Shown here in pieces: positions 776 to 48,949 of a stretch of 64,000 nt of DNA; the stretch's first letter is position 1, and each line of letters starts with the position of its first letter. Below the pieces are notes generated by a model that searched no databases, was not told the DNA's origin, and saw only the letters and a program-made list of their open reading frames with translations. Origin of the DNA: Shigella phage vB_SboS_Gloob. The stretch lies in sequence record OL615011. The stretch is one strand, 5' to 3'. Both the position numbers and the translations under genes were made by a program.

Positions 776-786
776 GGGGTATTTAG
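776..786 (-). promoter_or_regulatory. late promoter motif CTAAATACCCC (read on minus strand)
   Basis: Exact 11-mer about 25 nt upstream of the uvsW-like ATG; overlaps stop codon of upstream gene. Confidence 0.5.
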
Positions 787-1556
787 CGATCCGGCCAGAC
801 TCCGTTCTGTTCTTTATCCATGCGATGGTACAGACGAACACGCTCAAACATCTTTGTCAGGATGTCATCGCGGTTGAACTCTATGATGGTTGGCGTCAAC
901 GATGACTCGTTGGCAATCACATTGATGAGGCGGGTGATCTTGACACCGAACATCTGCTGGAACATAACAGAGTACAAGCACAGCTGGATACTGTAGTCCT
1001 CGATCATTCCCCGCGTCTTCATGGTGTTCGATGTCTTGAAGTCGATGATAGCAGGCTTACCCTCATAAACCCCGATAAGGTCCACTCGACCTGCGAGACC
1101 AAGCACCTCGCTATATAACGGGATCTCCTGAGCATAGATCTTTGTCATCTTGTTCAGATAGGGGAACAGCTGCTTGAACATGAACATGTATTCGCCAGCC
1201 GCTTCCAACACTTCTTTCATTGGGCGGTTCTTCAAATACAGTTCACATGCAAGGTGCAGCTTCTCCCCTCGGTCAGCGCAACGCATGGTCTCAAGGTCGG
1301 CGGCCTCTGCACCCAGCTTCTCCCTCCAAGCCTCAAGCCATTCATGATCACCAGTACGCCCCAGCATCGTCGTTACAGACGTCAGCTTGACACCAGTTGG
1401 TGACACATAATGACGACCGTTCTCCGTCGTCACACACTCCAGTTCCTTATGAGGAAGTTCGTACTGCTGGAATGTGTAATGACGATTTTCGAAGTCGTTC
1501 AGCTTGCGCAGGGCTTGGAGAGATGCCATCAGGAACCATCCATATATTTTCGCCAA
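783..1556 (-). CDS. PD-(D/E)xK-type nuclease-like protein (257 aa)
   Basis: ORF track; motif VDLIGVYEGKPAIIDFKTS resembles D...ExK nuclease core; no search performed. Confidence 0.4.
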   Translation of the reverse strand: MAKIYGWFLMASLQALRKLNDFENRHYTFQQYELPHKELECVTTENGRHYVSPTGVKLTSVTTMLGRTGDHEWLEAWREKLGAEAADLETMRCADRGEKLHLACELYLKNRPMKEVLEAAGEYMFMFKQLFPYLNKMTKIYAQEIPLYSEVLGLAGRVDLIGVYEGKPAIIDFKTSNTMKTRGMIEDYSIQLCLYSVMFQQMFGVKITRLINVIANESSLTPTIIEFNRDDILTKMFERVRLYHRMDKEQNGVWPDR

Positions 1557-1981
1557 TCAATGGCATTCTTCACTTCGTATCCCAGCTTGTTCAGGCGATC
1601 CAAACAAGTCTCGATGAACTTGACTTTTGCTTTCTGCTCTTGCAACAGAACAGACAGCTCTACATAGTCATCGTCGGCTTTGACCCATGTATCCAGGTCA
1701 GACTTCAGGGGGCGAACCTTCAGGGGGCGCTCTGCGTAGATGTTCGGGGGTAACTCCCCTGCATAGTAGCGGCGCAGATAGAGATCGATCTGGCGGAAGC
1801 GCCCGTTGAGGAATTCAAGATAACGCCCCTCACGCAGATAATGTCGTTGTACGGCCATCCAAGAGCGCCCGATTTTCAGTGAGATCTGGTCAAGGTTCAT
1901 GTCTTCTGGGTCCACTGTAATCAGCGGCTCCAGTTCGTTCATGATGTCCTCGGTTGCCATTGTCTGTAGTTGTTCTTTCAT
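1529..1981 (-). CDS. uvsY: UvsY-like recombination mediator (150 aa)
   Basis: ORF track; pattern YYAGE...VKADDDYVELSVLLQ...LGYEVKNAIDWR parallels remembered T4 UvsY (YYSGR...VLSADKDVLKVDTSLQ...RGFAIKHIQDMR). Confidence 0.55.
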   Translation of the reverse strand: MKEQLQTMATEDIMNELEPLITVDPEDMNLDQISLKIGRSWMAVQRHYLREGRYLEFLNGRFRQIDLYLRRYYAGELPPNIYAERPLKVRPLKSDLDTWVKADDDYVELSVLLQEQKAKVKFIETCLDRLNKLGYEVKNAIDWRKYMDGS

Positions 1982-2023
1982 AAAATATCCCAGCTTGTCA
2001 ATGTCATAGAATTATACCGTATT

Positions 2024-2524
2024 TCATGGATTAGAATCAATCACCTTCCCACCAGATAGTGGGACCAGCTGCTGGAACTTGAACGTCACTGTCGTCACCA
2101 GCTGAGGTACAGCCGCATCCACATCCACCAGTACGTTGTCCAGAGCAGTCGGACGGGCTTCCTCCAGCACGAGAGTGAGGCCAATCGGTCGGTTGAGGTT
2201 ATCCAGTAATTCAATGGTAATGTCCTTGGAGACAGCCAAATCCTTGCCGACGTTGCTGGTGATCCATTGGTGGATCTGTAACCACGATTTCCAGTCCTCG
2301 TCTATAACGAAAGTAAATACGACGGGATCATAGGTTAAACGTTCTGAAGGGATAGAAACCAGTACGTCGCCAGGAGACGGACCATCGATGCCTTCGGAGT
2401 ACACTCCTGGTATACTGAAGTCGTGGATGTTACGGGTTAGGAGTACAAGGTCTCCGATAGTCAGACGCCACTTATCGGACGCCGCGAAATTAGGGTTTTC
2501 GTTCTTGAATTGTACGTCGGACAT
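2024..2524 (-). CDS. hypothetical protein (166 aa)
   Basis: ORF track, ATG start, non-biased composition. Confidence 0.5.
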   Translation of the reverse strand: MSDVQFKNENPNFAASDKWRLTIGDLVLLTRNIHDFSIPGVYSEGIDGPSPGDVLVSIPSERLTYDPVVFTFVIDEDWKSWLQIHQWITSNVGKDLAVSKDITIELLDNLNRPIGLTLVLEEARPTALDNVLVDVDAAVPQLVTTVTFKFQQLVPLSGGKVIDSNP

Positions 2525-2562
2525 AATAGCACCTTTTGCTGTGGAGATATTTTGTGACCCTG

Positions 2563-3209: not shown

Positions 3210-3938
3210 TTACTTCAGGGCGCTCTTCAGATTATCAGAACCTATGTTGTTGATAACGCCACCAGCGCACAGGTCTTTAGCCCACTCAGACAGTACATTG
3301 GCGAACGAGAAGTTCAGACACTTGCTGACCATGTCTTGGATGTGGGCTAACTCTGAGGCAATACCATTGGCGATATCCTGACCGATTTGCGCCACCTGAG
3401 CAATAGCATCGTTGATATATCCGGTAACTTCGGCGGCCAGCGCCTGGATCTTTGCTAGGCCAGCGCTTACGCCCTGCGCAACTAACTCAGCCAGTTCGGC
3501 CATCTTGGCAGTAACAGTGCTGAGAGCACCCTCCATAGCCCCGATCCACTGGCGCCCAAGAGTCTGTATGACGCCGAAGGCATTGTTGATCAGATCACAG
3601 TTGGTCGGCTCGCGCTCGATTGACTTCAGGCCAGATTTGTACGACACGGAAGTCCCGATGCGGGAATACGCTTCGTTCACAGTCTGATCACCATAGTTGT
3701 TCAGCGTGGTGAGGCTGGTGTCGGCAGAGGTGAACATCGTGTTCGTTTCATTGAGTTTGGCTGTGGTTAGACCGCCTGCCGTCAGAGCGCCCTGGATTTG
3801 CGTATTTCCGGTGTTTGCCAGTGCAGCTGTAGTCGCCTTGCCGCTGGTGATTAAACCCTGAGACGTGCTGCTGAGGGACGGGAGAGGATTGTTAAATGCG
3901 TTACCCTGCTCAAGGGCGTCATAGATCTGTGCGTTCAT
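3210..3938 (-). CDS. hypothetical late protein, Ala/Gly/Thr-rich (243 aa)
   Basis: ORF track; start taken at MNAQIYD because the upstream in-frame ATG lies inside the promoter palindrome. Confidence 0.5.
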   Translation of the reverse strand: MNAQIYDALEQGNAFNNPLPSLSSTSQGLITSGKATTAALANTGNTQIQGALTAGGLTTAKLNETNTMFTSADTSLTTLNNYGDQTVNEAYSRIGTSVSYKSGLKSIEREPTNCDLINNAFGVIQTLGRQWIGAMEGALSTVTAKMAELAELVAQGVSAGLAKIQALAAEVTGYINDAIAQVAQIGQDIANGIASELAHIQDMVSKCLNFSFANVLSEWAKDLCAGGVINNIGSDNLKSALK

Positions 3939-3961
3939 AGAAAATACCCCCATGGATGATG

Positions 3962-3972
3962 GGGGTATTTAG
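3962..3972 (-). promoter_or_regulatory. late promoter motif CTAAATACCCC inside a palindrome (AAATACCCCCAT / ATGGGGGTATTT)
   Basis: Exact motif 25-30 nt upstream of gene start 3938; inverted repeat spans about 3936-3972. Confidence 0.5.
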
Positions 3973-4185
3973 GGGATCATGGCAGTTTGTAAACGAAGTT
4001 GGACCAGAACTTGCGAGCGAACTTCTTGGCATAGACCTTCCAGTCGGCGTATTCGCCCTCCTTCAGGTCATTGTAGGTCTCGAACCCTACTGCTCCCAAG
4101 AAGTACGCCGTGAAGATATAGCAGAACAGATTGACGACAAACATGATGTATCTCCGCTGTGTGAACTCAAATTATTTATGGTATG

Positions 4186-4608
4186 TTATAAAAGGCGCTT
4201 GGTCTTCGGCTTGCCCATTAGAGTGATGTCCACAGGGAGGCCAGTTTTCTTGCAACGGTTGATCATATCCAGAGTGCCAGTAGACGAGCCGTCCCACATC
4301 GCAATCGGATACACTTCCAGCCTGGTCTGCCTGACGAGTTCCAATGCCTTGTCTAACATGTCCTGATTGCGTTTGTTACCCATCCCTTTCCCATACCTTT
4401 CATAATAGCTCGGAGGGATTGGCATAGGAGTGATATGAACATAATTGATTTCAGCCCAATCACGGCAAATCGTGTCGACACCCGTGGCCTCACCCTCGAT
4501 CAACGTATAGACTTCATGAGGATCGAGAAGTTCGTCCAGCTTGGCGAATACCTTATCCCGCTCGGTGATTGAGCGGGAACCTGTAACGAGTACGATATAC
4601 TTCTTCAT
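4186..4608 (-). CDS. SLOG/DprA-like Rossmann-fold protein (141 aa)
   Basis: Start MKKYIVLVTGSRS; glycine-rich loop after a beta-strand resembles DprA/LOG-like families; weak, by eye only. Confidence 0.35.
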   Translation of the reverse strand: MKKYIVLVTGSRSITERDKVFAKLDELLDPHEVYTLIEGEATGVDTICRDWAEINYVHITPMPIPPSYYERYGKGMGNKRNQDMLDKALELVRQTRLEVYPIAMWDGSSTGTLDMINRCKKTGLPVDITLMGKPKTKRLL

Positions 4609-4613
4609 AGAAC

Positions 4614-4958
4614 TCACAGCGCCCCAAGATTGCCGATGACATACAGGGAGCACAGAGGAGTGCCTGACGAACGGGGTTCGATTGTCATCCCGCTCAGGCG
4701 GATCAGTTCCAGTAAGCCGTCAGTGGTTTGATACGCGCGTGTCGAACCGTTCGGACGGTATAGCTCCAGCTCGGTTCGCCCTTCCTTTAATGCGTTACGA
4801 ATGCGAGTGAACACACTGTGGCCGCCGAACTTCTGCTTCAGAAGGTCCAGCTTGGTGACCAGACGGCGCGATTTGCGCGGCTTACGCTTGTTTGGCTTTT
4901 CTAATTTGACGATGTGGGGGATCTCCACACGGTTGGTCATTTTGGTATCGCATGCCAT
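4614..4958 (-). CDS. hypothetical basic protein (114 aa)
   Basis: ORF track; ATG with GAGGA SD. Confidence 0.45.
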   Translation of the reverse strand: MACDTKMTNRVEIPHIVKLEKPNKRKPRKSRRLVTKLDLLKQKFGGHSVFTRIRNALKEGRTELELYRPNGSTRAYQTTDGLLELIRLSGMTIEPRSSGTPLCSLYVIGNLGAL

Positions 4959-5027
4959 GGTAAAGTCCTCTATTTGTAGGGGATAGGGTATGCGCTTAAC
5001 ATACCCCGTTCAAAGGTTTAGAACAAA

Positions 5028-9135: not shown

Positions 9136-9186
9136 TCCTTACATTGATATTCAGTTAAGTTGAAATTACTTAGTAGTTCAAAATCA

Positions 9187-9204
9187 AGCCCCCTTTCGAG
9201 GGCT
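9187..9204 (-). terminator. hairpin terminator after scaffold gene
   Basis: AGCCC..GGGCT stem followed by U-rich tract on minus strand. Confidence 0.45.
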
Positions 9205-10114: not shown

Positions 10115-10124
10115 CAGTATTTAG
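10115..10124 (-). promoter_or_regulatory. late promoter motif variant CTAAATACTG
   Basis: About 25 nt upstream of scaffold ATG 10090. Confidence 0.45.
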
Positions 10125-10135: not shown

Positions 10136-10804
10136 TCAGCCCAGATGTCTCAATGCGATATCGAGGCGGCGCAGGAAGTCGTCTTCGAACTGAATATTGG
10201 TTTTCACCAATGAATCGACCACTTGCCCTTTGATGTCTTTAGGAACCCAAATCCCCGAAGATTCATCAAGCTGCCATTCAACAGATTCGCTCACAGCCTT
10301 TACATAACAAACTTGTCCAGAAGGACGGTCGACTGCATCAACAGCAGTGAGCATAAAGCCAGGTTGAACGTCGTCATAACCGTTCACCGACTTGGTCTCA
10401 CCAAGGCCACGTGTAGACACGGCCAAGTTGAAGTCTGCTTCAGCCAGAGCACGAATGATCTGGCCTTTTGGTGTATTTAGCACACGCGCTCGACCGATTG
10501 CGTTTGTACCCTCCCAACGGAGGCTCTCGGTCTTCAGCGCAGCTTCAGCAATATCTGGGAAAGGGTAGTCGGGATGTTTGAGTTCACCGATTGCGCGACG
10601 ATCCTGAACATACTCTTTGTCATATGCTTCGACAGCTGGTATGCCCACTTTCTGGAGATCGTAGTTGCGTCCATTACGGTTCACCTGATTACACATCACG
10701 AATGGACCTTCGATGAACATAGCCTTACCCCCGGTGGAGGTCGTGCTTTCACCAATTTGGAGGTCTTTCCCTATCGCCGTGATCTCACGCAACAGTTTCA
10801 TCAT
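10136..10804 (-). CDS. prohead core protease, gp21-like (222 aa)
   Basis: GELKHP, GRARV, STRGLG, AVDAV parallel remembered T4 gp21 motifs; conserved position. Confidence 0.8.
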   Translation of the reverse strand: MMKLLREITAIGKDLQIGESTTSTGGKAMFIEGPFVMCNQVNRNGRNYDLQKVGIPAVEAYDKEYVQDRRAIGELKHPDYPFPDIAEAALKTESLRWEGTNAIGRARVLNTPKGQIIRALAEADFNLAVSTRGLGETKSVNGYDDVQPGFMLTAVDAVDRPSGQVCYVKAVSESVEWQLDESSGIWVPKDIKGQVVDSLVKTNIQFEDDFLRRLDIALRHLG

Positions 10805-11301: not shown

Positions 11302-11332
11302 ATCCTCTAAATGTTTTCTATACTTAGTCGAA

Positions 11333-13024: not shown

Positions 13025-13054
13025 GATTAAGTCCTCAACATTTTCTTGTAATTA

Positions 13055-13083
13055 GTGCTGGGGGAATAAGATTCCCCCAGCAC
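13055..13083 (-). terminator. 13-bp-stem hairpin between tail tube and portal genes
   Basis: GTGCTGGGGGAAT-AAG-ATTCCCCCAGCAC; likely partial terminator after tube gene. Confidence 0.5.
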
Positions 13084-13091
13084 TGAGGACA

Positions 13092-13625: not shown

Positions 13626-13678
13626 TATAGATTCTCCAAAAAGAGTTACACAATTCTAATTAGTGCCTTCAATGAAAT

Positions 13679-13696
13679 TGCCCTCCGAAGAGGGCA
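13679..13696 (-). terminator. hairpin with CUUCGG loop (GCCCTCTTCGGAGGGC) between sheath and tube genes
   Basis: Perfect stem with tetraloop; same 16-mer recurs at 26471. Confidence 0.5.
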
Positions 13697-15639: not shown

Positions 15640-15648
15640 GTTATTTAG
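15640..15648 (-). promoter_or_regulatory. late promoter motif variant CTAAATAAC
   Basis: About 40 nt upstream of sheath ATG. Confidence 0.4.
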
Positions 15649-19895: not shown

Positions 19896-19914
19896 ATCGA
19901 TACCCTCAATTTTG

Positions 19915-19925
19915 AAGGTATTTAG
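19915..19925 (-). promoter_or_regulatory. late promoter motif CTAAATACCTT
   Basis: About 20 nt upstream of ATG 19895. Confidence 0.45.
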
Positions 19926-26432: not shown

Positions 26433-26443
26433 ATTTAGTATAC
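26433..26443 (-). promoter_or_regulatory. late promoter motif variant CTAAATATGTC
   Basis: About 35 nt upstream of giant-gene ATG. Confidence 0.4.
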
Positions 26444-29033: not shown

Positions 29034-31241
29034 TTAAGAAGATGCAGACCATTGTGGCATGCTGAGTGTCCACTTACCAATTGACGTCCAATAAGTAGCA
29101 GTAAATGTAGCAGTCTTAGTTGTGGCAGTATTCGCACCCGTAACATCAACAGGAACACCTGCAAAACTCAAAGATGCAATGTTACTACCACGAACCAACA
29201 TATTAATTTTTTGCCCGTTATACGGTGTTCCAGACACTGTGATATTCAAACCGGAAGTCACATTTAGATAATATAATGCGTATCCCTGTCGGACATCTAT
29301 AGGAAGTGTTCCAGCTGTATATTGTGCAAAGGATTGTGTACCACGGTCTACAGCCAAGCCGTCTGTGTTACCTATTGGGATAACGGTTCCGCCAGGGAAT
29401 GCCCTAGCCCTTGGAATATAGGCGTAACATTGGCTTGCCCCAGAGAAATCAAACCAACGGGTTCTCAGTCCATTATTAGGAGCATGGATCACAGCCCCAA
29501 CACAACCACGACCTCGATACATACAGTCACCGATGGAATGACTATGATTTATACCGGCACAATAAAAGTCCCGGCTTCCTCCGCTTAGGTTGATATCAGC
29601 AATATCATTACGCTCAAAGTACATTCCGTAGACGTTTGTTCCGTCTGCGCTGTCGTAAAGTCCAAACTGACTGGTGTTCTGGCTAAATCCACCTGTAATG
29701 CACACGGCAGATGTGGAAAAGGTATTCACGTAATCGACATCAGTGCTTCCGTCAGTGCTGTTAAAAACTACGATGCCATAATCGCACTTGTTAGCAGGGT
29801 CGCCAGAGTATCCTCGATGGTCTTTAATCGTAATAGCATTCGGGCCATTAAGGACAAACAGACGTTTACCACCTATTCCACCGTTCAAAACCTCAGAGTT
29901 AGATATAATAACCCCATAACTCATAAACTCGATTCTAATTCCGGTGTTTCCTGTTCCTAGCCCCATATCAATCCAAGGGTCGAAAACACCAGTGTTGTTT
30001 CTGGCGCTGTATAAATGCAAGCCGATACAGTTGTTAAACCCAGAAAGGTCAATACGTATATCGTGAGTCTTACAGTTTCGAATAAAGGCGCTATTAACGT
30101 CTAATGAAGAAGCTCGTGCTACAGTGACTCCATCCGCCCCAGCTTTAATTTTTGCATTGGGATGGAAAAATACTTGGGTGTTCTGACCGAATTTAATGGT
30201 TTCTGCTGCCGTTGATACGGTGTAGTCTCCTGCATTGAAATAAATCCCACCACCAGCGGCCAAAATTGTGTTGATTTCCGCGTTGGTCATCGTCGGATAG
30301 ATGTTTTTCAACGGGAAAACGCCGGTTTTAACGGCATAATCATCGAAAATAGTACCACCATACCCGCTGCCAATTAATTTAGTTCCTATATCAGAAGCCA
30401 ATTGGTCACGTAAAGAATTTTGGTCTACTCGTACCCAAGCATCAACATCAATACCACCAGTGGTAACTGGAGTAGATCCGGCTACCACAGTTTTAGGCAG
30501 CGTGCCTGCCCAACGATACAATTTACCTTCTGCCTTATATCCGACAGACTGAGAAGCCGTAATAACAGTAGCACCAGCTTCAAACGTGCCTACCATAGGC
30601 AAACCAGATTCGGCAGCTAATCGACTCAGGATAGGATCGAGAGCACCACTGAAATTACCAGAGGCTTGTTTAAGTGTATTAATCTCCTCTTGCACCGTCT
30701 GCCCAGAAGACGTACCAATCAGACTTGCTCCTCCATCGGAAGAGAGCGCCAGGTAATTTTGTTTGATGGACATCTCGGCCACGACCCAAACCCCAGCCGC
30801 TGGTGAACCTGTAAGGAAACTCACAACTCCTGTTGTGCTATTGTAGGTGTAGTCAACCCCAGGAACCTGGAACTTACCATCGATATACAGGGTCTGCACA
30901 CCATATGTGGTGAAGTCGGGTGTGAACGTTGTTTCGTTGCCAACGGCCTGGAACTTGTAGATTCGGATCCCGTTTTCATAATCTTCTGGGGACAGGATCT
31001 TGTCAAACAGACAGTACACAACGTCTTCTGGTTCAAGAGATCGACCGAGGTTGACAGTGTTACCATCGATTTCATAATTGTCGACAGGAACCTGGACGCC
31101 GCCGTTGATGGTGATGAAGCCCGTAACAGGATAGAACGGGAGGGAGATAAACGTCTCTCCGCCCGTTGCGGTATAAGTGTATGGAATCTGGTGCGGGGCT
31201 GTTACAACCGCTCCAAAGATACTCTCGACGTTTCTGGTCAT
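29034..31241 (-). CDS. tailspike protein with extended N-terminal attachment domain (about 735 aa)
   Basis: Start MTRNVESIFG; WAGTLPKTV motif at about residue 250; beta-helix-like repeats. Confidence 0.7.
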   Translation of the reverse strand: MTRNVESIFGAVVTAPHQIPYTYTATGGETFISLPFYPVTGFITINGGVQVPVDNYEIDGNTVNLGRSLEPEDVVYCLFDKILSPEDYENGIRIYKFQAVGNETTFTPDFTTYGVQTLYIDGKFQVPGVDYTYNSTTGVVSFLTGSPAAGVWVVAEMSIKQNYLALSSDGGASLIGTSSGQTVQEEINTLKQASGNFSGALDPILSRLAAESGLPMVGTFEAGATVITASQSVGYKAEGKLYRWAGTLPKTVVAGSTPVTTGGIDVDAWVRVDQNSLRDQLASDIGTKLIGSGYGGTIFDDYAVKTGVFPLKNIYPTMTNAEINTILAAGGGIYFNAGDYTVSTAAETIKFGQNTQVFFHPNAKIKAGADGVTVARASSLDVNSAFIRNCKTHDIRIDLSGFNNCIGLHLYSARNNTGVFDPWIDMGLGTGNTGIRIEFMSYGVIISNSEVLNGGIGGKRLFVLNGPNAITIKDHRGYSGDPANKCDYGIVVFNSTDGSTDVDYVNTFSTSAVCITGGFSQNTSQFGLYDSADGTNVYGMYFERNDIADINLSGGSRDFYCAGINHSHSIGDCMYRGRGCVGAVIHAPNNGLRTRWFDFSGASQCYAYIPRARAFPGGTVIPIGNTDGLAVDRGTQSFAQYTAGTLPIDVRQGYALYYLNVTSGLNITVSGTPYNGQKINMLVRGSNIASLSFAGVPVDVTGANTATTKTATFTATYWTSIGKWTLSMPQWSASS

Positions 31242-31247
31242 TTGAAG

Positions 31248-31288
31248 ATACCCCATAGAGGATTTGCCAATATGGGGTATTTAGTGAA
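31248..31288 (-). repeat. 41-nt module ATACCCCATAGAGGATTTGCCAATATGGGGTATTTAGTGAA, copy 1 (late promoter plus leader palindrome)
   Basis: Identical to 33467-33507; contains CTAAATACCCC on minus strand and inverted repeat ATACCCCATA / TATGGGGTAT. Confidence 0.75.
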
Positions 31289-31440: not shown

Positions 31441-33462
31441 TTAGCTTAGATTTAGACTAAACCCACCATTTGACTTGCTTATCATACCACGAACAGTTTT
31501 GTTGCCTCCACCGCTGTATTCGTCATATTGCATTTTGACATTTACAGCGATGTTGGCGTCAATTGAATCCCATCCAGCAAAGTTCAGGAACACATTTCCG
31601 CTAGTGTCTACTGATATTGTTGGCGTGGCGGCTGTTCCTTTTGTGAACGTACTTTGCACTGAACCTTCCATTGTGCTTGCTGCTGGAGTTGTGCCCATCA
31701 CCAATGTTCCCTGCAATCGCCCATGCCATGCGCTAGAAACACCTGAAACCGGGGAGTTGGCTACAACATCAACCGTCCACAAACTTACGTTTCGGTACGT
31801 ACTCACAGTGCCAATTTTAAAATTCCTGGAATCTCCAGCGGCTTTAATGAACAGCATTGAACCCGTAGCGCATTTACTTGAATCAGGCGCTGCACCTACA
31901 GATGCAAAATCAGAGAATGTGCAATTATCAAATTTTACTTTGCTATAATCGGTAGCTGTTAACTTAGCTTCTGGCGCATTAACATTTTCGAATTTAACTC
32001 CGCCATAGTTCGCCACTGCGCCTGTAAGCTGATTGGTATTGACATATACATCACCACCATTCAGCTTTCGGACCACCAGGTCACGACAGATAAATCCGTT
32101 AATAGAATCTCCCGACGTCCAGTTGTCGTTGGTGTTGAAGTTAAAGAACCATGCATGGTTACCAGAGTCTCCGCCGCCAAGTTCTATGCGTCCGGTGATC
32201 ACAATATTTGAATAACCATATCCACGCGGGTTATTATCTGCTACAGACTCGTCAATCAGCTTTGTTGCGCCAATAACACTTCCCCAATTCCCCCCGACGA
32301 CATCATAATTGATGGTTATGTTACGCATCAGTCCGGCAATCATCGTCTCTGTTATGGTGCTGTCCCAACCCCAATCCAGCCATATTGGTGCTACGCGGTA
32401 CGGAAGCGTGTAACGCCCTGTGCTACGATATTTGTAATTGACTGTAAGATTAGATATTTGATTATCCATGTTACCGTTATAGAAATACATTTTGATTGGC
32501 GTACCCTGTTGAGTATCAATGGCATCAACAGTTATCTGGCCACCACCACAATTGTTCGTCAGAAAGAAATCACGACGGCAACCATTATTAACTGTATGGA
32601 TGTCAACTACACCAACATTACCAAGGAGATGTGGATAGCGAGTGTCATTGTTCACACTGCGAGCAAAAAGATTTTTTACATTAGTACATTCGTAGCCCTG
32701 ATAGCACTTGTTAGTCTTGCCAATAAATGTGAAATTATTGCATCCATTCAGGCGCAGCGGGGTTAGTCCGCGTTTGTCATCACCGACATACTCAAGGGTG
32801 GAAGAAGCATCCACTTCAAACACCAGATTGGTGATATTCGTCAGGTCGAACACGCGCGTCAGGTCAAATGCACCGGAGTAAAGCAGGGTGTCCCTGATAA
32901 CCAGTCCGCGAATTTCAAGGCAGTCCATATTACTTAAAGTAAAGATGGTACTAAGACCGCCACTACCAGGACCAAAGTTCACAACCTGGTCAAAAATAAT
33001 TTCAACACTTTTTAGGTTGTTAGACGTGATGTAAGACTGTAAAGATTGCAGTGTACCGAATCGGGAGAAGTAAAGGACACGTTTGTTTACAACCGAATCA
33101 AGAGCATCTTTTACTGTAGATGATTCGTATCCGACAAGACTTGCCTTTTCACCCGTCAGCAGTTCAGAACCCAGCGTTTTGCTTTCAACGCTAACCCATG
33201 CTGAAGATGATACACCACCAGTTGATTGTGGTGTTGAGTTTTTGTCTACAGTCTTGGGCAAAGACCCACCCCAGGTATAACACTGGGCACCATTGATGTG
33301 CCACACGGCGTCGGTTGCGGTCGTTACAGTAGCACCGTCTTCAAAACTACCTTCGACCAAATTAAGACCCGATTCCAACAAAGCCCGCCGCCACAATTCG
33401 CGCGGGTTTTTGTTGATTTCTTTGGCTGTTGAACCTTTCGGCTGATTGAATTGCGGATTCAT
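31441..33462 (-). CDS. tailspike protein (about 673 aa)
   Basis: Start MNPQFNQPKGS; WGGSLPKTV motif; beta-helix-like. Confidence 0.7.
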   Translation of the reverse strand: MNPQFNQPKGSTAKEINKNPRELWRRALLESGLNLVEGSFEDGATVTTATDAVWHINGAQCYTWGGSLPKTVDKNSTPQSTGGVSSSAWVSVESKTLGSELLTGEKASLVGYESSTVKDALDSVVNKRVLYFSRFGTLQSLQSYITSNNLKSVEIIFDQVVNFGPGSGGLSTIFTLSNMDCLEIRGLVIRDTLLYSGAFDLTRVFDLTNITNLVFEVDASSTLEYVGDDKRGLTPLRLNGCNNFTFIGKTNKCYQGYECTNVKNLFARSVNNDTRYPHLLGNVGVVDIHTVNNGCRRDFFLTNNCGGGQITVDAIDTQQGTPIKMYFYNGNMDNQISNLTVNYKYRSTGRYTLPYRVAPIWLDWGWDSTITETMIAGLMRNITINYDVVGGNWGSVIGATKLIDESVADNNPRGYGYSNIVITGRIELGGGDSGNHAWFFNFNTNDNWTSGDSINGFICRDLVVRKLNGGDVYVNTNQLTGAVANYGGVKFENVNAPEAKLTATDYSKVKFDNCTFSDFASVGAAPDSSKCATGSMLFIKAAGDSRNFKIGTVSTYRNVSLWTVDVVANSPVSGVSSAWHGRLQGTLVMGTTPAASTMEGSVQSTFTKGTAATPTISVDTSGNVFLNFAGWDSIDANIAVNVKMQYDEYSGGGNKTVRGMISKSNGGFSLNLS

Positions 33463-33466
33463 GATA

Positions 33467-33507
33467 ATACCCCATAGAGGATTTGCCAATATGGGGTATT
33501 TAGTGAA
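33467..33507 (-). repeat. 41-nt promoter/leader module, copy 2
   Basis: Identical to 31248-31288. Confidence 0.75.
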
Positions 33508-36521: not shown

Positions 36522-36554
36522 TTCAAATACCCCTAAATGTGTTCGTTTCATCTA

Positions 36555-36565
36555 GGGGTATTTAG
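36555..36565 (-). promoter_or_regulatory. late promoter motif CTAAATACCCC with downstream palindrome
   Basis: Exact motif about 30 nt upstream of ATG 36521. Confidence 0.5.
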
Positions 36566-40404: not shown

Positions 40405-40442
40405 GTTTATCTCCATCACCTGAACTTGAATATGGTGTTGAA

Positions 40443-40451
40443 GATATTTAG
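40443..40451 (-). promoter_or_regulatory. late promoter motif variant CTAAATATC
   Basis: About 40 nt upstream of ATG 40404. Confidence 0.35.
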
Positions 40452-43413: not shown

Positions 43414-43635
43414 ATGAGTTATTTTGTATGTGTCTGTGATGTTGAATATTTTGATAAATTTGCTAGGGAATCTTTCTATTCTTTCTTACCGATCCAATCG
43501 TTTAAAACTGAATCGGAAGCAAATAAATCAATGGAACTAATGAGACCTCTTTACAGGAAGGAACTTGCTATTTTGCAGGATTCTGACCTAATAATCATGG
43601 GTAATAGGATCACAAGATCGGTGCCCAAGATATAA
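43414..43635 (+). CDS. hypothetical protein (73 aa) abutting tRNA-Met
   Basis: AGGAG SD; stop 6 nt before tRNA. Confidence 0.45.
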   Translation: MSYFVCVCDVEYFDKFARESFYSFLPIQSFKTESEANKSMELMRPLYRKELAILQDSDLIIMGNRITRSVPKI

Positions 43636-43641
43636 AATTTC

Positions 43642-43717
<76 letters not shown>

Positions 43718-44126
43718 TATTAAGGGGCGATAGTTTAAGGGATAGCTGTCCGGACAGCGAATCCTCATAGAGAACGGCTGGGCGGCCAAACCCAGCAGGT
43801 GAGGTGAAAAGCCTCAGACCCCGCCAAATTTGTGTTGAAGAGACGTTGGGTCAGAACCAACTCGCCCGAAAGGGGGATCGTATAGCGGTAATTATGCTTC
43901 GACACAACAGCATTATGGGGAGCACCGATGAGATGAGGGTTCGGGCGAGTTAAGCGACGGCCGATTAAGTCCTGTACTCTGTTCAAGGTGGTCTTAACCT
44001 CCCCACCAAATATTGTTGGACTGCCAGCAAGCTCCGGTCTACGGCAGGCGTGATGGGATCGCGGAATTCAAATACCGCCTTGGGAGCACCTAAATAAACC
44101 AGTTGTTCAATAAACAGTTGGTGAGT

Positions 44127-44327
44127 ATGATGAAAACGTTCGGTGATTTTATTGCTGAGTGGGATGGCCTCGCTACCGACAACAAAGAGATTGTCGAGTT
44201 TGTTGAAAAGCGAGGTGACAAGTGGGTTGTCCTTGACCACACCAAGACGAAGGTTCTTGGTACACATGACACCAAAGCTGACGCTGATGCCCAATTAAGG
44301 GCGATTGAAGCGAACAAGCACGGATAA
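44127..44327 (+). CDS. hypothetical protein (about 66 aa) abutting tRNA-Asn
   Basis: ORF track (track start is TTG at 44103; ATG at 44127). Confidence 0.4.
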   Translation: MMKTFGDFIAEWDGLATDNKEIVEFVEKRGDKWVVLDHTKTKVLGTHDTKADADAQLRAIEANKHG

Positions 44328-44328
44328 A

Positions 44329-44404
44329 GACGATGTAGTTCAGTCGGTAGAACGGTGGACTGTTAATCCATATGTCACAGGTTCAAGTCCTGTCATCGTC
44401 GCCA
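44329..44404 (+). tRNA. tRNA-Asn (anticodon GTT)
   Basis: GACGATG acceptor, D-arm GTTC-AGTCGGTA-GAAC, anticodon loop CTGTTAA, T-arm ACAGG-TTCAAGT-CCTGT, CCA encoded. Confidence 0.8.
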
Positions 44405-44661
44405 GACAATGGGTGTGAACGAAAGTGAATAGGCACGAAGTACGCGACCGACAAGCTCCAAGCCTCTGTCCAATAGCCGAACGGAATCTGAAGACGACGA
44501 TAGTAACGCCCACCAAATTCAGAGTGTAGAGGCTACAGTAGTGCGCACCTCACGGGTTGCTACACCGGACACTCTGATACAAATCTGCCGCTGCGTGGAT
44601 TAGCTGAGGAAGGATGGCCGATGTCCTCGAGCGTGGCCCAGCACGCAGCGGTAGACCAAAT

Positions 44662-44745
44662 GTGAGTGTGGCAGAGCGGTCGAATGCAGGAGACTGTAAA
44701 TCTCCCCGTAACAGCGCGGTGGTTCGAATCCATCCACTCACACCA
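44662..44745 (+). tRNA. tRNA-Tyr (anticodon GTA), long variable arm
   Basis: Acceptor GTGAGTG/CACTCAC, anticodon stem GGAGA/TCTCC with loop CTGTAAA, T-loop TTCGAAT, CCA encoded. Confidence 0.7.
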
Positions 44746-44886
44746 AACACAGTAAGCGTTGCAGCCACGCTGTGTATCTGGCCAGAAGGCACTGGTCGCC
44801 AGTTAACCAATCGGCGCTGAGAAGCGCGGGGAGTTGGGCTACGGCAGATCAAATGCTCAATCGGGTGTGAAGCCCGTCTAAATTTC

Positions 44887-44970
44887 GCGGGAGCCATAGG
44901 GGTTGGACAGTAGCCGACTGATCATCGGCGACGATCACTGGACAGGTTCGAATCCTGATCTCCCGCTCCA
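44887..44970 (+). tRNA. probable tRNA-Ile (anticodon GAT) with atypical T-stem and long variable region
   Basis: Acceptor GCGGGAG/CTCCCGC, anticodon stem GCCGA/TCGGC with loop CTGATCA, T-loop TTCGAAT; geometry imperfect by eye. Confidence 0.4.
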
Positions 44971-44974
44971 AATT

Positions 44975-45063
44975 GGAAGGTTGCCCGAGAGGTTTAAGAG
45001 ACTCGACTGCTAATCGAGTGGGGCTTTTAGCCCCCGAAGGTTCGAATCCTTCACCTTCCGCCA
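44975..45063 (+). tRNA. tRNA-Ser (anticodon GCT), long variable arm
   Basis: Acceptor GGAAGGT/ACCTTCC, anticodon stem CTCGA/TCGAG with loop CTGCTAA, variable arm TGGGGCTTTTAGCCCCC, T-arm GAAGG-TTCGAAT-CCTTC, CCA encoded. Confidence 0.75.
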
Positions 45064-45158
45064 AATTTGCGATCATCGCGGAAATCCCAGACGCGAGTGG
45101 AGGCCAGGGTGAAGACTGGCACAGTTCATCGACGGCAAAGATGGCTGTCTCCTGGAAT

Positions 45159-45474: not shown

Positions 45475-45503
45475 GCCAGGTAAGGAAACCTGGCTTTCTT
45501 TTG
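45475..45503 (+). terminator. rho-independent terminator ending the tRNA region
   Basis: GCCAGGT-AAGGAA-ACCTGGC followed by TTTCTTTTG. Confidence 0.7.
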
Positions 45504-45508
45504 TCCGG

Positions 45509-45516
45509 TATAAATA
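45509..45516 (+). promoter_or_regulatory. T4-type late promoter box TATAAATA
   Basis: Exact T4 late consensus about 28 nt upstream of ATG 45544. Confidence 0.4.
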
Positions 45517-45543
45517 GATCTGAACTTGTACAGGAGGTGTATC

Positions 45544-45780
45544 ATGGCAACAGCCAAGTTTACTCTGGATGCAAGTACATGGACGCAAGTCTCAGATGGC
45601 ACATCATTGAAAACAATACAAGTGACTCAAGGTTCTGTGTATTTGTGCGATAACCCAACCACGCCGAGTGCTTCCTCTCCGGCTCATACTCTCTATCAAG
45701 GTAATATCGTTGTGCTCACCCCGCCGACTGTTGGGTGGGTTAAGAGCGCGTCTTCTGCTTCCTCTGTTATCGTGTCCTAG
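45544..45780 (+). CDS. hypothetical protein (78 aa)
   Basis: AGGAGG SD; ATG. Confidence 0.5.
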   Translation: MATAKFTLDASTWTQVSDGTSLKTIQVTQGSVYLCDNPTTPSASSPAHTLYQGNIVVLTPPTVGWVKSASSASSVIVS

Positions 45781-45788
45781 GAGGAGCC

Positions 45789-46307
45789 ATGGCCATTCTA
45801 CCTTCTCCTTACCTGGGCAATATGCTCCAGACGCACCGCATCAAAGTTGAAGTGAGGTTCTCTGGCCTCACAGCGGCTTTGCCTGCTGGAGCGACTGGTG
45901 TTGATCTCTTAACGTTGTTGGACGGCAAAACACCGCATCCTTCGTCTGTGACTGGGTTAGCCCCTTTCTTCAAATTGTCCGACCATAAGTTCCATGCATT
46001 TCCGGTCGATTCTATCTTGCCTGTCAAGGTGAACATCATCGGAACATGGTCCGGGTCGACCTCCAACCGAACAATGTTGCTGGACTTTGTCGGCTCAACA
46101 GGCAACCAGATATCCAAGAGTCGAGATTCCAGCGTACCACCCCCAGACGTTCTCTCCTTCATCACGTTCTTCAGTGTTGACAAGGCGGGGAACCTCGCGA
46201 CCAACGGGGCGCAGATGAAGCTGTATTCTTATGGTGGCGACTTCACCGTTAATGAGATCGTTCTGATCGCAGAGCAGGTGGTTCCTCTCTACATGAATAT
46301 CATCTAA
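45789..46307 (+). CDS. hypothetical protein (172 aa)
   Basis: GGAGGAG SD; ATG. Confidence 0.5.
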   Translation: MAILPSPYLGNMLQTHRIKVEVRFSGLTAALPAGATGVDLLTLLDGKTPHPSSVTGLAPFFKLSDHKFHAFPVDSILPVKVNIIGTWSGSTSNRTMLLDFVGSTGNQISKSRDSSVPPPDVLSFITFFSVDKAGNLATNGAQMKLYSYGGDFTVNEIVLIAEQVVPLYMNII

Positions 46308-46324
46308 TTTGTTCAACAACTAAT

Positions 46325-46354
46325 AGGGGTTTAAAATTTAACCGTTAAACCCCT
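46325..46354 (+). terminator. hairpin GGGGTTTAA...TTAAACCCC
   Basis: Perfect 9-bp stem after stop at 46307. Confidence 0.5.
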
Positions 46355-46377
46355 ATCATTGATTTGAGGATACACCA

Positions 46378-47076
46378 ATGCGTAATGTTTCTATCTGGGA
46401 AAATACTGAAGAATGGGAATTGCAGTCCACCCCAACTATAATCCGTATGTTCCAATACAAAGGCAACAAGCGTACTCTGAACGAGTTCTTGTCGCCGAAT
46501 TATATCCATCGCGGCTCCCAGCTCGCTCCGCGTGATCTCAACCAGCCTGGCGAATGCACGCCCTTTGATCTCGACGTGAAGGGGCAGGTTGTTCTTATGG
46601 GTTACTCTAGTATTACCGCCGCCGAAGAGGGCGACGGTCAGCCGTTCAAAGTATTCTATACGCGTGAACAGGCAATCCATTGGCTGGTCAAAAACTTCTT
46701 CTATTTCTATGGTGATGAAAGCGCAACCCGCCGTTGTCGTAAAGCCGTTTCTATGGACTTCGACGCAGAGAATCGGAAGTACCAGGCCATGGCTCGCGAG
46801 TACGAAAAGAATCTCGTCAAGCCTGTCACTGTGGTTGACAACAAATACGTCGCTGAATCCCCGCGTCATACAGTGAATATCGTTCCGGCTACGAAGGACG
46901 CCTCATTGGGCGAGATTGAAGAAAGCCTGAATCGAAAATATGTAGAGCCACCTGTGGCTCCTACCCCTCCGGCCAGTCGTGTTCTGAATGATCAGGGTGC
47001 TCCGGTAAAACAAAAGGTCAAGAAGCCGACTTTCATGGAAAACATGATGAAGTTCCTTCGTCTGTTCAAGAAGTAA
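46378..47076 (+). CDS. hypothetical protein (232 aa)
   Basis: ORF track. Confidence 0.5.
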   Translation: MRNVSIWENTEEWELQSTPTIIRMFQYKGNKRTLNEFLSPNYIHRGSQLAPRDLNQPGECTPFDLDVKGQVVLMGYSSITAAEEGDGQPFKVFYTREQAIHWLVKNFFYFYGDESATRRCRKAVSMDFDAENRKYQAMAREYEKNLVKPVTVVDNKYVAESPRHTVNIVPATKDASLGEIEESLNRKYVEPPVAPTPPASRVLNDQGAPVKQKVKKPTFMENMMKFLRLFKK

Positions 47077-47145
47077 GCCGAGATTCTCCTTTTCTATACT
47101 CCTGTAGATACGCTATGATAAGCCAATGTCTACAGGAGAAATAGA

Positions 47146-48444
47146 ATGAACGACAAAACTCAGAAACTTATAGATATCACCAAACAGGCGATAGAAGAAA
47201 ACGCCAGCCCTTTTATCTTTGCTCCATATACCCCGGATGCCCTTATGGGCGACCGCAAAACTATCTTCAATGCTCTCTCGCTTGACCGCAATGTCATCCA
47301 CTGGGAAGACTATCTCTACAAGCACACCCCGTGCGAACTCGTTGCCAACCCCGAAACCAATCAGCAGGTCTGGTTCAAGCGTGAAGATTACTTTGCACCG
47401 CTGTCCAATTACGCAAATGGTCAGCAGGGCATCAATGGCAGTAAGTTGCGCCAGGCCATCTGGCTGATGGTTGAGCACCTGAAGGCCGGAGGTTCCCCTG
47501 ACATCATCCACGGCACTGTCGTTGGTAGTCCGCAATCCCCTATGGCGACGGCAGTCTCTCGGCACTTCGGCGGCAAGACAACCACTGTACTCGGCGCGAC
47601 CAAACCAACCACTTGCATGAACCATGGCATGGTTGAGATGAGCGCCTGGTTCGGCAGTGAGTTCAACTTCGTCGGCTCCGGCTACAACAGCACGATCCAG
47701 CCGCGCTGTAAGAAGCTCATCGAGCAGGTGAATCCAAAGGCGTACTACCTGGAATATGGTATTACCCTGGACCACACAGTGCATTCCCCCGAGCGCATCG
47801 CAGGATTCCATATGCTGGGCGGCGAGCAGGTTGCTAACATCCCGGACCATATCACCGACCTGATCATCCCGGCTGGCTCATGCAACTCATGTACGAGTAT
47901 CCTGACCGGACTGGCGATGCATCCGAAGCCTAATCTGAAGCGTGTGTATCTGATCGGCATCGGTCCGAACCGCCTGGACTTCATTGAGAGCCGCCTGCGC
48001 ATCATCGGCAAACAGGCCAATCTACCGCATATCACAGACTTCACCCGCCGTTATCACGACAACCCAGACTATGTCCACGGCAAGAAGGAGCTTCAGCATG
48101 CCTCTAAGAGCGTTTCGCTGGCTGGCCTCCTAAGTGGTATCAGGCAGAAGGGAGAGCCAGAGGTCGTGCTTCCTCGTTTTGAGGTACACCATTGGGATCT
48201 CCACACCACCAATTGGGTTCGTTACAATGACCTGATGGATTATCAGTGGGGTGATATCGAATTGCACCCGCGTTATGAAGGCAAGGTCATGACCTGGGTC
48301 CAGCAACACAAGCCCGAGTTGCTCAATGAGAACACTCTGTTCTGGATTGTGGGCAGCAAGCCGTACATCGAGCCAATGAAGGCCGCATGCCCTGAGCTGG
48401 CTATCCCAGATGAAGTGAACGTCAACACCTTCACTCCTTCCTGA
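47146..48444 (+). CDS. PLP-dependent fold-type-II enzyme candidate (432 aa)
   Basis: GINGSKLRQAIWLM resembles the GGNKxRKLE lysine loop of the ACC deaminase / D-cysteine desulfhydrase family; by eye. Confidence 0.45.
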   Translation: MNDKTQKLIDITKQAIEENASPFIFAPYTPDALMGDRKTIFNALSLDRNVIHWEDYLYKHTPCELVANPETNQQVWFKREDYFAPLSNYANGQQGINGSKLRQAIWLMVEHLKAGGSPDIIHGTVVGSPQSPMATAVSRHFGGKTTTVLGATKPTTCMNHGMVEMSAWFGSEFNFVGSGYNSTIQPRCKKLIEQVNPKAYYLEYGITLDHTVHSPERIAGFHMLGGEQVANIPDHITDLIIPAGSCNSCTSILTGLAMHPKPNLKRVYLIGIGPNRLDFIESRLRIIGKQANLPHITDFTRRYHDNPDYVHGKKELQHASKSVSLAGLLSGIRQKGEPEVVLPRFEVHHWDLHTTNWVRYNDLMDYQWGDIELHPRYEGKVMTWVQQHKPELLNENTLFWIVGSKPYIEPMKAACPELAIPDEVNVNTFTPS

Positions 48445-48450
48445 TCCCTC

Positions 48451-48461
48451 CTAAATACCCC
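48451..48461 (+). promoter_or_regulatory. late promoter CTAAATACCCC with leader palindrome (ATACCCCA / TGGGGTAT)
   Basis: Exact motif about 22 nt upstream of ATG 48484. Confidence 0.5.
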
Positions 48462-48483
48462 ATACAATCCGTGTGGGGTATCT

Positions 48484-48942
48484 ATGAAAACCTTCCTGCA
48501 ATACCTACAAGAATCAGAACATCCTGTTTTCGGCAACCTGTTGTTGTATCATGGGTCTAATTGTGAATTCGATGAGTTCGACTTCAAGCGCTTCGGTCAG
48601 ACAGACTGCGGTACGCTCGGTCCTGGCTTCTATCTGACTGGGTTAGAAGAAGAGGCGCAGCGTTATGCAGACAACGCTGTCCGATATCGACAGGAAGGGG
48701 AACCCCACGTGATGAGTTTCCGTGTTCGCCTCAACAACCCTATTGTGCTGGATTCCAACAATGCCTCAGCCTGGGAAGACCGGATGAGGGAACTTGGCAT
48801 AGAACCAGGAAAGGTTCACGACAATGCAAAAGAGTTGATGGCTCAGGGCTATGACTCCGTCATCATTATTGATCCGGCGGCTCTGCCTATGGTGAGGGAA
48901 GTTGTTGTGTACAAACCAGGCCTGGCAGTGCGGGAAGCCTAA
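48484..48942 (+). CDS. late-expressed hypothetical protein (152 aa)
   Basis: ORF track; contains LLLYHGSN; function unassigned. Confidence 0.5.
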   Translation: MKTFLQYLQESEHPVFGNLLLYHGSNCEFDEFDFKRFGQTDCGTLGPGFYLTGLEEEAQRYADNAVRYRQEGEPHVMSFRVRLNNPIVLDSNNASAWEDRMRELGIEPGKVHDNAKELMAQGYDSVIIIDPAALPMVREVVVYKPGLAVREA

Positions 48943-48949
48943 ATACCCC
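48939..48949 (+). promoter_or_regulatory. late promoter CTAAATACCCC
   Basis: Exact motif about 28 nt upstream of ATG 48978. Confidence 0.5.

Follow-up and report, generated by a model that had tools for sequence, protein, structure and literature searches.

The leader design of bacteriophage T4 gene e has been known since the 1980s. On long early and middle RNAs, the ribosome-binding sites of T4 e, soc, 49 and I-TevI are sequestered in a helix; the late promoters are positioned so that late RNA has no 5' strand and the block is lifted, with an effect of about 100-fold in the case of e (PMC3014915); the same arrangement is described for I-TevII, I-TevIII, segB and Aeh1 mobE (PMC2988022). Here we examine late-promoter boxes embedded in palindromes in a 64,000-nucleotide stretch of DNA from Shigella phage vB_SboS_Gloob (record OL615011; 'the window' denotes the whole of this stretch). 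At seven genes, including three tailspike genes, these palindromes probably constitute a T4 gene e-style device that hides the ribosome-binding site in read-through RNA.

The late promoter of T4 is an 8-bp box, TATAAATA, that lies at -13 to -6 and is devoid of a -35 element (PMC2988020, PMC1524935). The late consensus of Aeromonas phage Aeh1, found upstream of late-gene orthologues, is CTAAATA from -12, with C replacing A (PMC1524935, PMC2988020). For the ViI-like phages, 'CTAAATAcCcc' is quoted as one of two regulatory motifs, with five positions given for EspM4VN (PMC7283392); a first-pass annotation of the window had named it as a reported late promoter of these phages. The CBA120 paper of 2011 called the late promoter of the family unidentified (PMC3184105), and a sequence-based literature search did not retrieve the original description of the motif.

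The CTAAATA motif as a putative late promoter

Annotation of the window was transferred from Ag3, LIMEstone1 and P46FS4 and complemented by PHROG scans. The window is 96% identical to Shigella phage Ag3 over the 10-kb piece compared, its gp6-like protein is 99.5% identical to gp6 of Salmonella phage P46FS4, and a test piece of 201 nt matches Shigella phage ChubbyThor at 100%; by these matches we place it in Agtrevirus, a genus of the Ackermannviridae (ViI-like phages).

The 11-mer CTAAATACCCC occurs exactly seven times in the window, against 0.01 expected: at 776, 3962, 31274, 33493 and 36555 on the minus strand and at 48451 and 48939 on the plus strand (in the stem analyses, the minus-strand copies are labelled by the lower coordinate of their heptamer, i.e. 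780, 3966, 31278, 33497 and 36559, respectively). The heptamer CTAAATA is present 14 times where 3.4 copies are expected, a count that none of 100 shuffles reached, and 13 of these copies have a start codon 23-42 nt downstream, on the same strand as the gene. By our own arithmetic, the zones that lie 20-45 nt ahead of the gene starts, about 90 in number, amount to about 2% of the two strands and should hold about 0.1 chance copies. The genes behind the boxes encode the sheath, scaffold, gp14, gp6, tailspikes, virion proteins and UvsW. The first-pass annotation had reported twelve copies of the motif, 20-40 nt upstream of named genes. All twelve sites are present there, on the strand of the downstream gene and with the heptamer 23-42 nt from the ATG in each case, but the 11-mer is exact at only seven of them, the remaining five (scaffold, 10118; sheath, 15642; gp14, 19919; giant protein, 26432; gp6, 40445) displaying the heptamer alone. 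Its list also omitted a thirteenth heptamer at 44090, a hairpin promoter at 59315 and other boxes. The canonical T4 box TATAAATA is found twice (45509 and 59315) and CATAAATA once (4173), with a start codon 25-31 nt downstream of each.

The heptamer of the window aligns with T4 TATAAATA (-13 to -6) and has C at -12, as in Aeh1. Aeh1, which belongs to another family of T4-related phages, likewise has it upstream of late-gene orthologues; by contrast, no CCCC extension is reported for Aeh1, and in the window CTAAATA coexists with the canonical box. The sequence is identical to the published ViI-like motif, at least three of the five EspM4VN positions are orthologues of window sites, and the LIMEstone1 record annotates a 'putative late promoter' at syntenic sites; the texts on this motif that we examined mention neither the inverted repeat nor its overlap with the Shine-Dalgarno sequence. 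The P46FS4 annotation comprises gp55 (ORF72, ORF standing for open reading frame), gp33 (ORF109) and the sliding clamp gp45 (ORF40), and the three proteins are also stated for Ag3. No -35 element is conserved: among orthologues, 23 of 32 columns are variable in the 8 nt ahead of the box, as against 0 of 28 in the box itself. The AT-rich segment expected 3' of a T4-type box is not found, seven sites having CCCC at -5 to -2; however, the T4 e promoter P1 also lacks it and has CCTTC there, so this segment is a tendency and not a rule. The late-promoter reading put forward in the first-pass annotation is thus supported in silico by the T4 and Aeh1 box alignment, the virion and morphogenesis gene context, the presence of gp55, gp33 and the clamp, and the LIMEstone1 annotation. 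The assignment of CTAAATA (and TATAAATA) as the -12 to -6 box of T4-type late promoters is well founded, entirely computational and already published.

Palindromes overlapping the box and the Shine-Dalgarno sequence

Stems were searched without gaps between promoter positions -10 to +3 and the 22 nt preceding the start codon. A score of 7.5 or more is reached by seven of the twelve sites, whereas 2000 shuffles of the 3' window yield 0.09 such sites on average and 2 at most; the stems measure 12 bp (3966), 10 bp (31278), 11 bp (33497), 15 bp (36559), 11 bp (48451), 9 bp (19919) and 8 bp (40445). The last, upstream of gp6, is borderline, since 15% of 34 control leaders (real Shine-Dalgarno leaders of the window) pair equally well with its arm. 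The six strong 5' arms find no partner among these 34 leaders, and five of them have a shuffle P of <=0.0005. When folded as RNA, the six strong sites have energies (dG) between -11.4 and -21.0 kcal/mol, with z between -3.0 and -6.3. An additional hairpin, located beyond the range of the first-pass annotation at the canonical TATAAATA of 59315, is the strongest (dG -21.4, z -6.9). No stem beyond chance is found at 780, 10118, 15642, 26432 and 48939. As the leaders at 31278 and 33497 are a duplicate cassette, they are not independent, which leaves six independent strong elements.

On the minus strand, the hairpin promoter at 3942-3972 (box 3962-3972) precedes the gene of a phrog_2114 protein (ATG 3938) and pairs AAATACCCCCAT (3959-3970) with ATGGGGGTATTT (3942-3953) across a loop of 5 nt (dG -17.2, z -3.0); the 55-aa ORF upstream stops 4 nt before the box. 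That of the neck gene gp14 (19900-19925, box 19919-19925, ATG 19895) pairs ATACCTTCA (19913-19921) with TGAGGGTAT (19900-19908; dG -11.4, z -3.6) and is kept in Ag3, EspM4VN and IME250. At tailspike A (31248-31284, box 31274-31284, ATG 31241), ATACCCCATA (31271-31280) pairs with TATGGGGTAT (31248-31257), with an inner GG/CC pair (dG -17.1, z -4.5); at tailspike B (33466-33503, box 33493-33503, ATG 33462), 33490-33500 pairs with 33466-33476 (dG -17.5, z -3.4). The 1000-aa tailspike-like protein (36525-36565, box 36555-36565, ATG 36521) has the 15-bp stem, AAATACCCCTAGATG (36549-36563) with CATTTAGGGGTATTT (36525-36539; dG -21.0, z -6.3). The borderline stem of gp6 (40408-40451, box 40445-40451, ATG 40404) joins TATCTTCA to TGGAGATA over a GGAG Shine-Dalgarno sequence (z -2.2). 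On the plus strand, the promoter of a 152-aa virion protein (48451-48481, box 48451-48461, ATG 48484) pairs ATACCCCATAC (48455-48465) with GTGTGGGGTAT (48471-48481; dG -18.1, z -4.9), and the PLP-enzyme-like gene upstream stops 6 nt before the box. Finally, the canonical TATAAATA at 59315-59346 (box 59315-59322, ATG 59351) pairs ATATCCTCGC (59320-59329) with GTGAGGATAT (59337-59346) over a GAGGA Shine-Dalgarno sequence, the AUG being paired as well.

The overlap with both box and Shine-Dalgarno sequence is, like the motif, its enrichment, its placement and the stems themselves, directly observed. The 5' arm starts in the last 3-5 bases of the box (ATA, AATA, AAATA) and continues through the C-rich bases, while the 3' arm is G-rich and terminates in TAT(T)(T), 2-6 nt ahead of the ATG. 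The match of the CCCC by GGGGTAT a few nucleotides downstream, already pointed out in the first-pass annotation, is present at five of the seven CCCC sites; outside the motif and its partners, GGGGTAT has 4 copies against 4.0 expected. Because there is no other purine-rich stretch between hairpin and ATG at the hairpin sites, the G run must be the Shine-Dalgarno sequence. GGGG is rare in that role (3 of 46 crude leaders, two being hairpin sites), AGGA, GGAG and GAGG being dominant. Start codons were set by the starts of PHROG profiles, automatic picking having taken in-frame ATG, TTG or GTG codons within the hairpins: ATGs internal to three hairpins (3953, 31256, 36551) lengthen the mechanical ORFs, and the profiles begin at the downstream ATGs (3938, 31241 and 36521). 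The internal ATG of the 33497 hairpin is out of frame.

Conservation of the stems

The first-pass annotation had staked its reading on conservation of the palindrome in relatives, which we examined in 10 GenBank genomes; a scan of IMG/VR with the 152-aa gene yielded two loci only. The outcome favours the palindrome: the stems are kept in four genera, Agtrevirus, Limestonevirus, Kuttervirus and Taipeivirus (including a Serratia phage), while the loops drift. Among orthologues, variable columns number 2 of 31 in the 5' arm beyond the box and 24 of 50 in the loop, next to the 0 of 28 in the box and the 23 of 32 in the upstream flank (stem versus loop, P = 7e-4; Phage 38, whose genes are fragmented and which appears error-ridden, was left out of these column statistics). 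The loop at 48451, for instance, reads aatcc, aaccc, aacca or agtaa, and the few changes within stems turn G-U into A-U or G-C.

Between independent sites, the arms differ and are still complementary: CCCCCAT/ATGGGGG, CCCCATA/TATGGGG, CCCCTAGATG/CATTTAGGGG, CCCCATAC/GTGTGGGG, CCTTCA/TGAGGG and TCCTCGC/GTGAGGA. When the sites are aligned on the box and the TAT, 92% of cells are paired versus 76% after shuffling, a level that 0 of 500 shuffles reach, with the reservation that the 3' anchor was picked with the pairing known and that T4 e was included. In that alignment 7 of 11 pairs change on both sides, and slid registers are 33-56% paired.

The leaders have also been duplicated and exchanged. 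A 46-nt promoter-hairpin leader is duplicated before tailspikes A and B (31243-31288 versus 33462-33507, 96% identical), and the fourth tailspike of the window, which carries another, unpaired leader (aacaacaggagatt), contains a 75% repeat of the tailspike B sequence that codes for the N terminus (28903-28955 versus 33410-33462). From such exchanges it follows that leaders and tailspike heads recombine as modules. At gp14, a remnant made of the hairpin and the first gp14 codons lies beyond an inserted ORF152 (an endonuclease in Mutine); the pieces compared are 2286-2316 versus 1511-1542 in LIMEstone1 and about 40567 versus 41311 in Mutine.

A putative gate on read-through RNA

To position the RNA relative to the stem, we infer the start site from the spacing in T4 and Aeh1. 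With the box at -12 to -6 and the T4 spacing assumed, CCCC occupies -5 to -2 and +1 falls on the A or T right after it; the 5' arms then span -10 to +2, extending to +5 only at 36559, and a transcript starting at the box would retain 2-5 nt of an arm of 9-15 nt. Since such a late transcript would be devoid of the 5' arm, the hairpin should be formable only in read-through RNA. The predicted folding energy is -14 to -29 kcal/mol for RNA beginning 40 nt upstream versus -3 to -5 kcal/mol for RNA beginning at +1, and the predicted probability that the Shine-Dalgarno sequence is unpaired is 0.00-0.21 in read-through RNA versus 0.33-0.50 in late RNA.

In the mechanism that we propose, the boxes would be read by host RNA polymerase with a gp55-like sigma factor, gp33 and the sliding clamp, as in T4. 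At seven promoters, the end of the box plus the C-rich bases (CCCC, CCTTC, TCCTC) would serve as the 5' strand of a hairpin whose 3' strand is the Shine-Dalgarno sequence of the downstream gene (GGGG, GAGGG, GAGGA) followed by TAT. RNA entering from the upstream gene would have both strands and fold, thereby burying the ribosome-binding site, whereas RNA from the embedded promoter would begin just after the CCCC, without the 5' strand, and be translatable. Translation of the gated genes would in this way be tied to the firing of their own late promoter, and the same hairpin may additionally attenuate read-through transcription. The existence of the read-through RNA and the translational effect are inferred as well.

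The likeness to T4 e is close. The T4 gene e sequence, which we read directly, is TTTTATAAATACCTTCTATAAATACTTAGGAGGTATTATG, in which ATACCTTCT pairs with AGGAGGTAT (dG -14.9, z -3.95). Its geometry (TATAAATACCTTCT-loop-AGGAGGTATTATG; TATAAATACCTTCT...AGGAGGTAT) is nearly base for base that of the window elements: in both cases the end of the late box and a C-rich run form the 5' strand, the Shine-Dalgarno sequence and UAU form the 3' strand, and the start codon lies 2-6 nt past the stem. The gp14 element, CTAAATACCTTCA...TGAGGGTAT, resembles T4 gene e almost base for base, CTAAATACCCCAT...ATGGGGTAT is likewise comparable to the T4 arms, and the CCCC elements have the T4 e form with CCTTC exchanged for CCCC. 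The window differs in that its box has C at -12 and its arm is usually CCCC facing an atypical GGGG Shine-Dalgarno sequence. Moreover, the gated late genes of T4 ride on early or middle polycistronic RNA, whereas three of the seven here are tailspike genes in the late operon and one follows a terminator.

Five hairpin sites lie 0-15 nt after a co-directional gene with no terminator between, and the upstream gene looks non-structural at two hairpin sites only, 48451 and 59315. The silencing rationale of T4 fits both: the 55-aa membrane protein gene at 59315 follows a 408-aa gene of the polymerase block by 1 nt, and the element at 48451 follows the PLP-enzyme-like gene by 6 nt. It perhaps also fits 3966.

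Several observations weigh against a gate of this kind. The three tailspike hairpins lie within the late operon and follow late genes by 8, 15 and 157 nt, so the T4 rationale of silencing on early RNA is not obviously applicable to them, and the gp14 hairpin sits after a bidirectional terminator. The CCCC sites at 780 and 48939 have no stem, and therefore CCCC(ATA) has a value of its own beyond pairing. Within orthologous groups, 10 of 11 pairs never vary and no double compensatory change is seen; the within-orthologue evidence is one of conservation and not of covariation, and promoter and Shine-Dalgarno function impose constraints of their own on both arms. The between-site covariation carries the choice of anchor mentioned above. 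The hairpin is dispensable at some genes, because Ag3, EspM4VN and Taipeivirus carry an unpaired leader at their tailspike B orthologue, as at the fourth tailspike of the window, and because in LIMEstone1 and Mutine the gp14 leader was replaced after the insertion by one without a hairpin. A literature search found no start-site mapping or transcriptome study of Ackermannviridae. Lastly, these hairpins are entered as terminators in the records of Mutine and KWBSE43-6.

Alternative explanations

This last point leads to the explanation that survives best beside the gate and is compatible with it, although on balance we hold it to be unlikely: the hairpins would be rho-independent terminators, attenuators or 3'-end stabilisers of the upstream gene, their overlap with the next promoter would arise because intergenic spaces are short, and the burial of the Shine-Dalgarno sequence would be incidental. 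Like such terminators, they are GC-containing stems after a stop codon, sometimes with a U-rich tail (GGGGGUAUUUUCU at 3966, GGGGUAUUUU in Taipeivirus and Mutine, UAUUUU in several orthologues). The Mutine record marks a hairpin of the tailspike A type as a terminator (29393-29427 of the sequence compared), KWBSE43-6 annotates three hairpins as ARNOLD terminators with dG of -10.6 to -12.5, and the equivalent tailspike junction in EspM4VN, as well as the fourth tailspike of the window, has an ordinary terminator-like hairpin. However, a consensus scan (GC-rich stem, loop of 3-8 nt, at least 5 U in 8) flags 0 of 7 window hairpins: except at 3966 the tails have only 4 T in 8, although weak T tracts are also a feature of the ordinary terminators of the phage, and the loops reach 9-13 nt. 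In contrast to a plain terminator, the window stems contain the promoter and the Shine-Dalgarno sequence, with no separate Shine-Dalgarno sequence after the hairpin, whereas the capsid, portal and tube genes have a clear terminator hairpin with the promoter downstream of it, not inside. In addition, the T4 gene e element, of the same form, is documented as a translational gate (PMC3014915). Terminator or gate, the element insulates the gene from upstream transcription either way.

Much less probable, and not supported by our analysis, is the view of the first-pass annotation, in which late transcripts hold both arms and the hairpin caps the late mRNA leader or regulates its stability or translation. 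The palindromes are indeed real, stable and conserved, and the T4 start spacing is an assumption. Yet the 5' arm is the promoter itself: a box at -12 to -6 puts that arm at -10 to +2 or +5, of which late RNA keeps the 2-5 nt given above, and the RNA would need to start in or upstream of the box to contain it. The late transcripts of T4 gene e, with the same geometry, are without the 5' strand (PMC3014915).

We find it very improbable that the palindrome works at the DNA level, as a cruciform or as the operator of a dimeric phage protein. Inverted repeats do overlap the promoter, and I-TevI, which represses its own late promoter, provides a precedent (PMC2988022). But the arms differ among sites (CCCCCAT, CCCCTAGATG, CCTTCA, TCCTCGC), and the inter-arm distance of 4-13 nt is unfit for one common DNA-binding dimer. 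G-T wobbles are tolerated and become A-T or G-C in relatives, which fits RNA pairing and not DNA recognition.

It is just as improbable that the stems are not under selection and that the C-rich extension of the promoter merely happens to complement a G-rich ribosome-binding site: partnerless CCCC runs exist (780, 48939), any C run resembling an anti-Shine-Dalgarno sequence will pair with a Shine-Dalgarno sequence and the gp6 stem has its equals among control leaders, but the complementarity extends over 10-15 bp, past CCCC/GGGG into the ATA of the box and the flanks, it surpasses the control leaders and shuffles described above (0 of 34; P <=0.0005 for five sites), and the stems are conserved with drifting loops.

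Other boxes and neighbouring features

The window begins with a recombination and repair block (1 to about 7,800; UvsW, exonuclease, UvsY), followed on the minus strand by head, neck, tail, tailspike and baseplate genes (7,800-40,400, from transferred annotation and PHROG), by tRNAs (43,600-45,100), by a plus-strand block with two virion proteins (about 45,500-49,400) and, from 52,140, by a DNA polymerase and nucleotide-metabolism block. A search of Rfam matched tRNAs and no other RNA family.

Among the boxes without a strong stem, the copy of CTAAATACCCC at 776-786 (minus) precedes the UvsW-like helicase gene (ATG 754) and contains the stop codon of the upstream exonuclease gene; it shows only a degenerate 4-bp CCCA/UGGG pairing with a GGGAG Shine-Dalgarno sequence (z +0.65). 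The heptamers of the gp22-like scaffold (10118-10124, ATG 10090), the sheath (15642-15648, ATG 15599) and the giant structural protein (26432-26438, ATG 26397), all on the minus strand, have no hairpin, in the case of the scaffold none involving the Shine-Dalgarno sequence. The thirteenth CTAAATA (44090-44096, plus) stands before a 66-aa ORF (44130-44327) abutting tRNA-Asn, and its local stem is not significant (z -0.7). The second canonical TATAAATA (45509-45516, plus), 27 nt before an ATG, has no hairpin; a late promoter is annotated at the syntenic place in LIMEstone1. One single-mismatch copy of the 11-mer, CTAAATACACC, the only one and unlisted in the first-pass annotation, is found at 10470-10480 (minus) within the gene of the gp21 protease, with the scaffold gene about 380 nt downstream. 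Ag3 has the identical copy, which may represent an internal promoter or chance. As for a divergent promoter on the opposite strand of the palindromes, the reverse readings (TTCAAATA, AGAAAATA) have 2-3 mismatches to the box and this candidate was rejected.

The variants CTAAGTA and CTAATTA noticed earlier at the capsid, portal and tube genes were found as described: CTAAGTA at 9167-9173 (capsid) and 11321-11327, and CTAATTA at 13049-13055 (portal) and 13657-13663 (tube), all on the minus strand. The tube site is CTAAATA in EspM4VN and pSal-SNUABM-02, so the variant boxes are forms of one element. Each of the capsid, portal and tube boxes is preceded, at a distance of 14-20 nt, by an ordinary GC-rich hairpin whose tail is short and T-rich (9187-9204, 13074-13089 and 13679-13696, minus). 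To judge from their sequence, these genes have a layout of terminator then promoter, unlike the sites with the promoter inside the hairpin.

Farther afield, the rest of the genome, as represented by 95 kb of P46FS4, has about eight further boxes upstream of genes, including gp5, gp48 and gp54, and neither CTAAATACCCC nor a Shine-Dalgarno hairpin. The distant Vibrio phage D504 has CTAAATA ahead of structural genes, with neither CCCC nor hairpins at these sites.

The CTAAATACCCC of the second 152-aa virion protein (48939-48949, plus; ATG 48978) shows no pairing between box and Shine-Dalgarno sequence. Here, sequence upstream of the box pairs just before the Shine-Dalgarno sequence, leaving the box in the loop (48926-48970, CAGTG.GG..AGCC / GGCT..CC.CACTG, z -2.3). 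An equivalent pairing, CAGTGTGG / CCACACTG, is seen in Serratia phage IME250 (8420-8470, minus) and is absent in two Klebsiella/E. coli Taipeiviruses. The first 152-aa virion protein (48484-48942, plus) is 99.3% identical to its counterpart in Dickeya Limestoneviruses and only about 72% identical to those of the closely related Agtreviruses pSal-SNUABM-02 and RPN242; in an otherwise Ag3-like genome, this looks like a recent exchange between genera.

Around the hairpin promoter at 3942-3972, PHROG 289 (a 500-aa 'GTP-binding domain' family) matches two separate minus-strand ORFs, 4186-4653 matching profile positions 7-146 and 3210-3938 matching 258-500. Between the halves lie the CATAAATA box (4173-4180, minus), the 55-aa hydrophobic ORF that it precedes (3977-4144, phrog_4845) and the hairpin promoter. 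For the C-terminal part there is a second match, to the stand-alone family phrog_2114, and 3210-4653 may be a split or nested gene. A further hairpin, GGGTATG-ttaagcg-CATACCC (4985-5007, minus), is located 27-49 nt ahead of a gene that starts at 4958 and has the GGGTAT and ATACCC words in reversed order and no late box.

The gene behind the 59315 hairpin (59351-59518, plus) encodes a 55-aa protein of phrog_3879 with one N-terminal transmembrane helix and a charged tail, amid replication and nucleotide-metabolism genes. It is a candidate lysis-timing (holin-like) protein, in a context that resembles that of T4 e; the holin of the family has been reported as unidentified.

Implications

The hairpins of the window change no concept, the design being already known from T4: a known motif and a known regulatory design are found in new places. 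The promoter-plus-gate reading nonetheless bears on annotation. Several GenBank records call these hairpins terminators or place the gene start at an ATG within them, and this reading corrects the start codons at 3938, 31241 and 36521. It would also make the 'cCcc' of the published consensus largely an anti-Shine-Dalgarno strand and not a sigma-factor contact.

Ackermannviridae phages are candidates for therapy and biocontrol, and tailspike swaps change their host range. The short tailspike leader probably unites promoter, insulation and translation control, and this determines the cutting point in engineering. More speculatively, and we regard this as doubtful, the CCCC-type leader of about 45 nt could be a portable 'insulator cassette' that combines an attenuator, a fresh late promoter and a translational gate, and that duplicates and travels with tailspike genes; in a variant of this idea it would be a coupling device opened by a ribosome terminating 4-15 nt upstream. 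If true, each receptor-binding module would be expressed independently of its neighbours and be swappable between phages. If the gate itself is confirmed, the T4 gene e design would be old and widespread in T4-related lineages.

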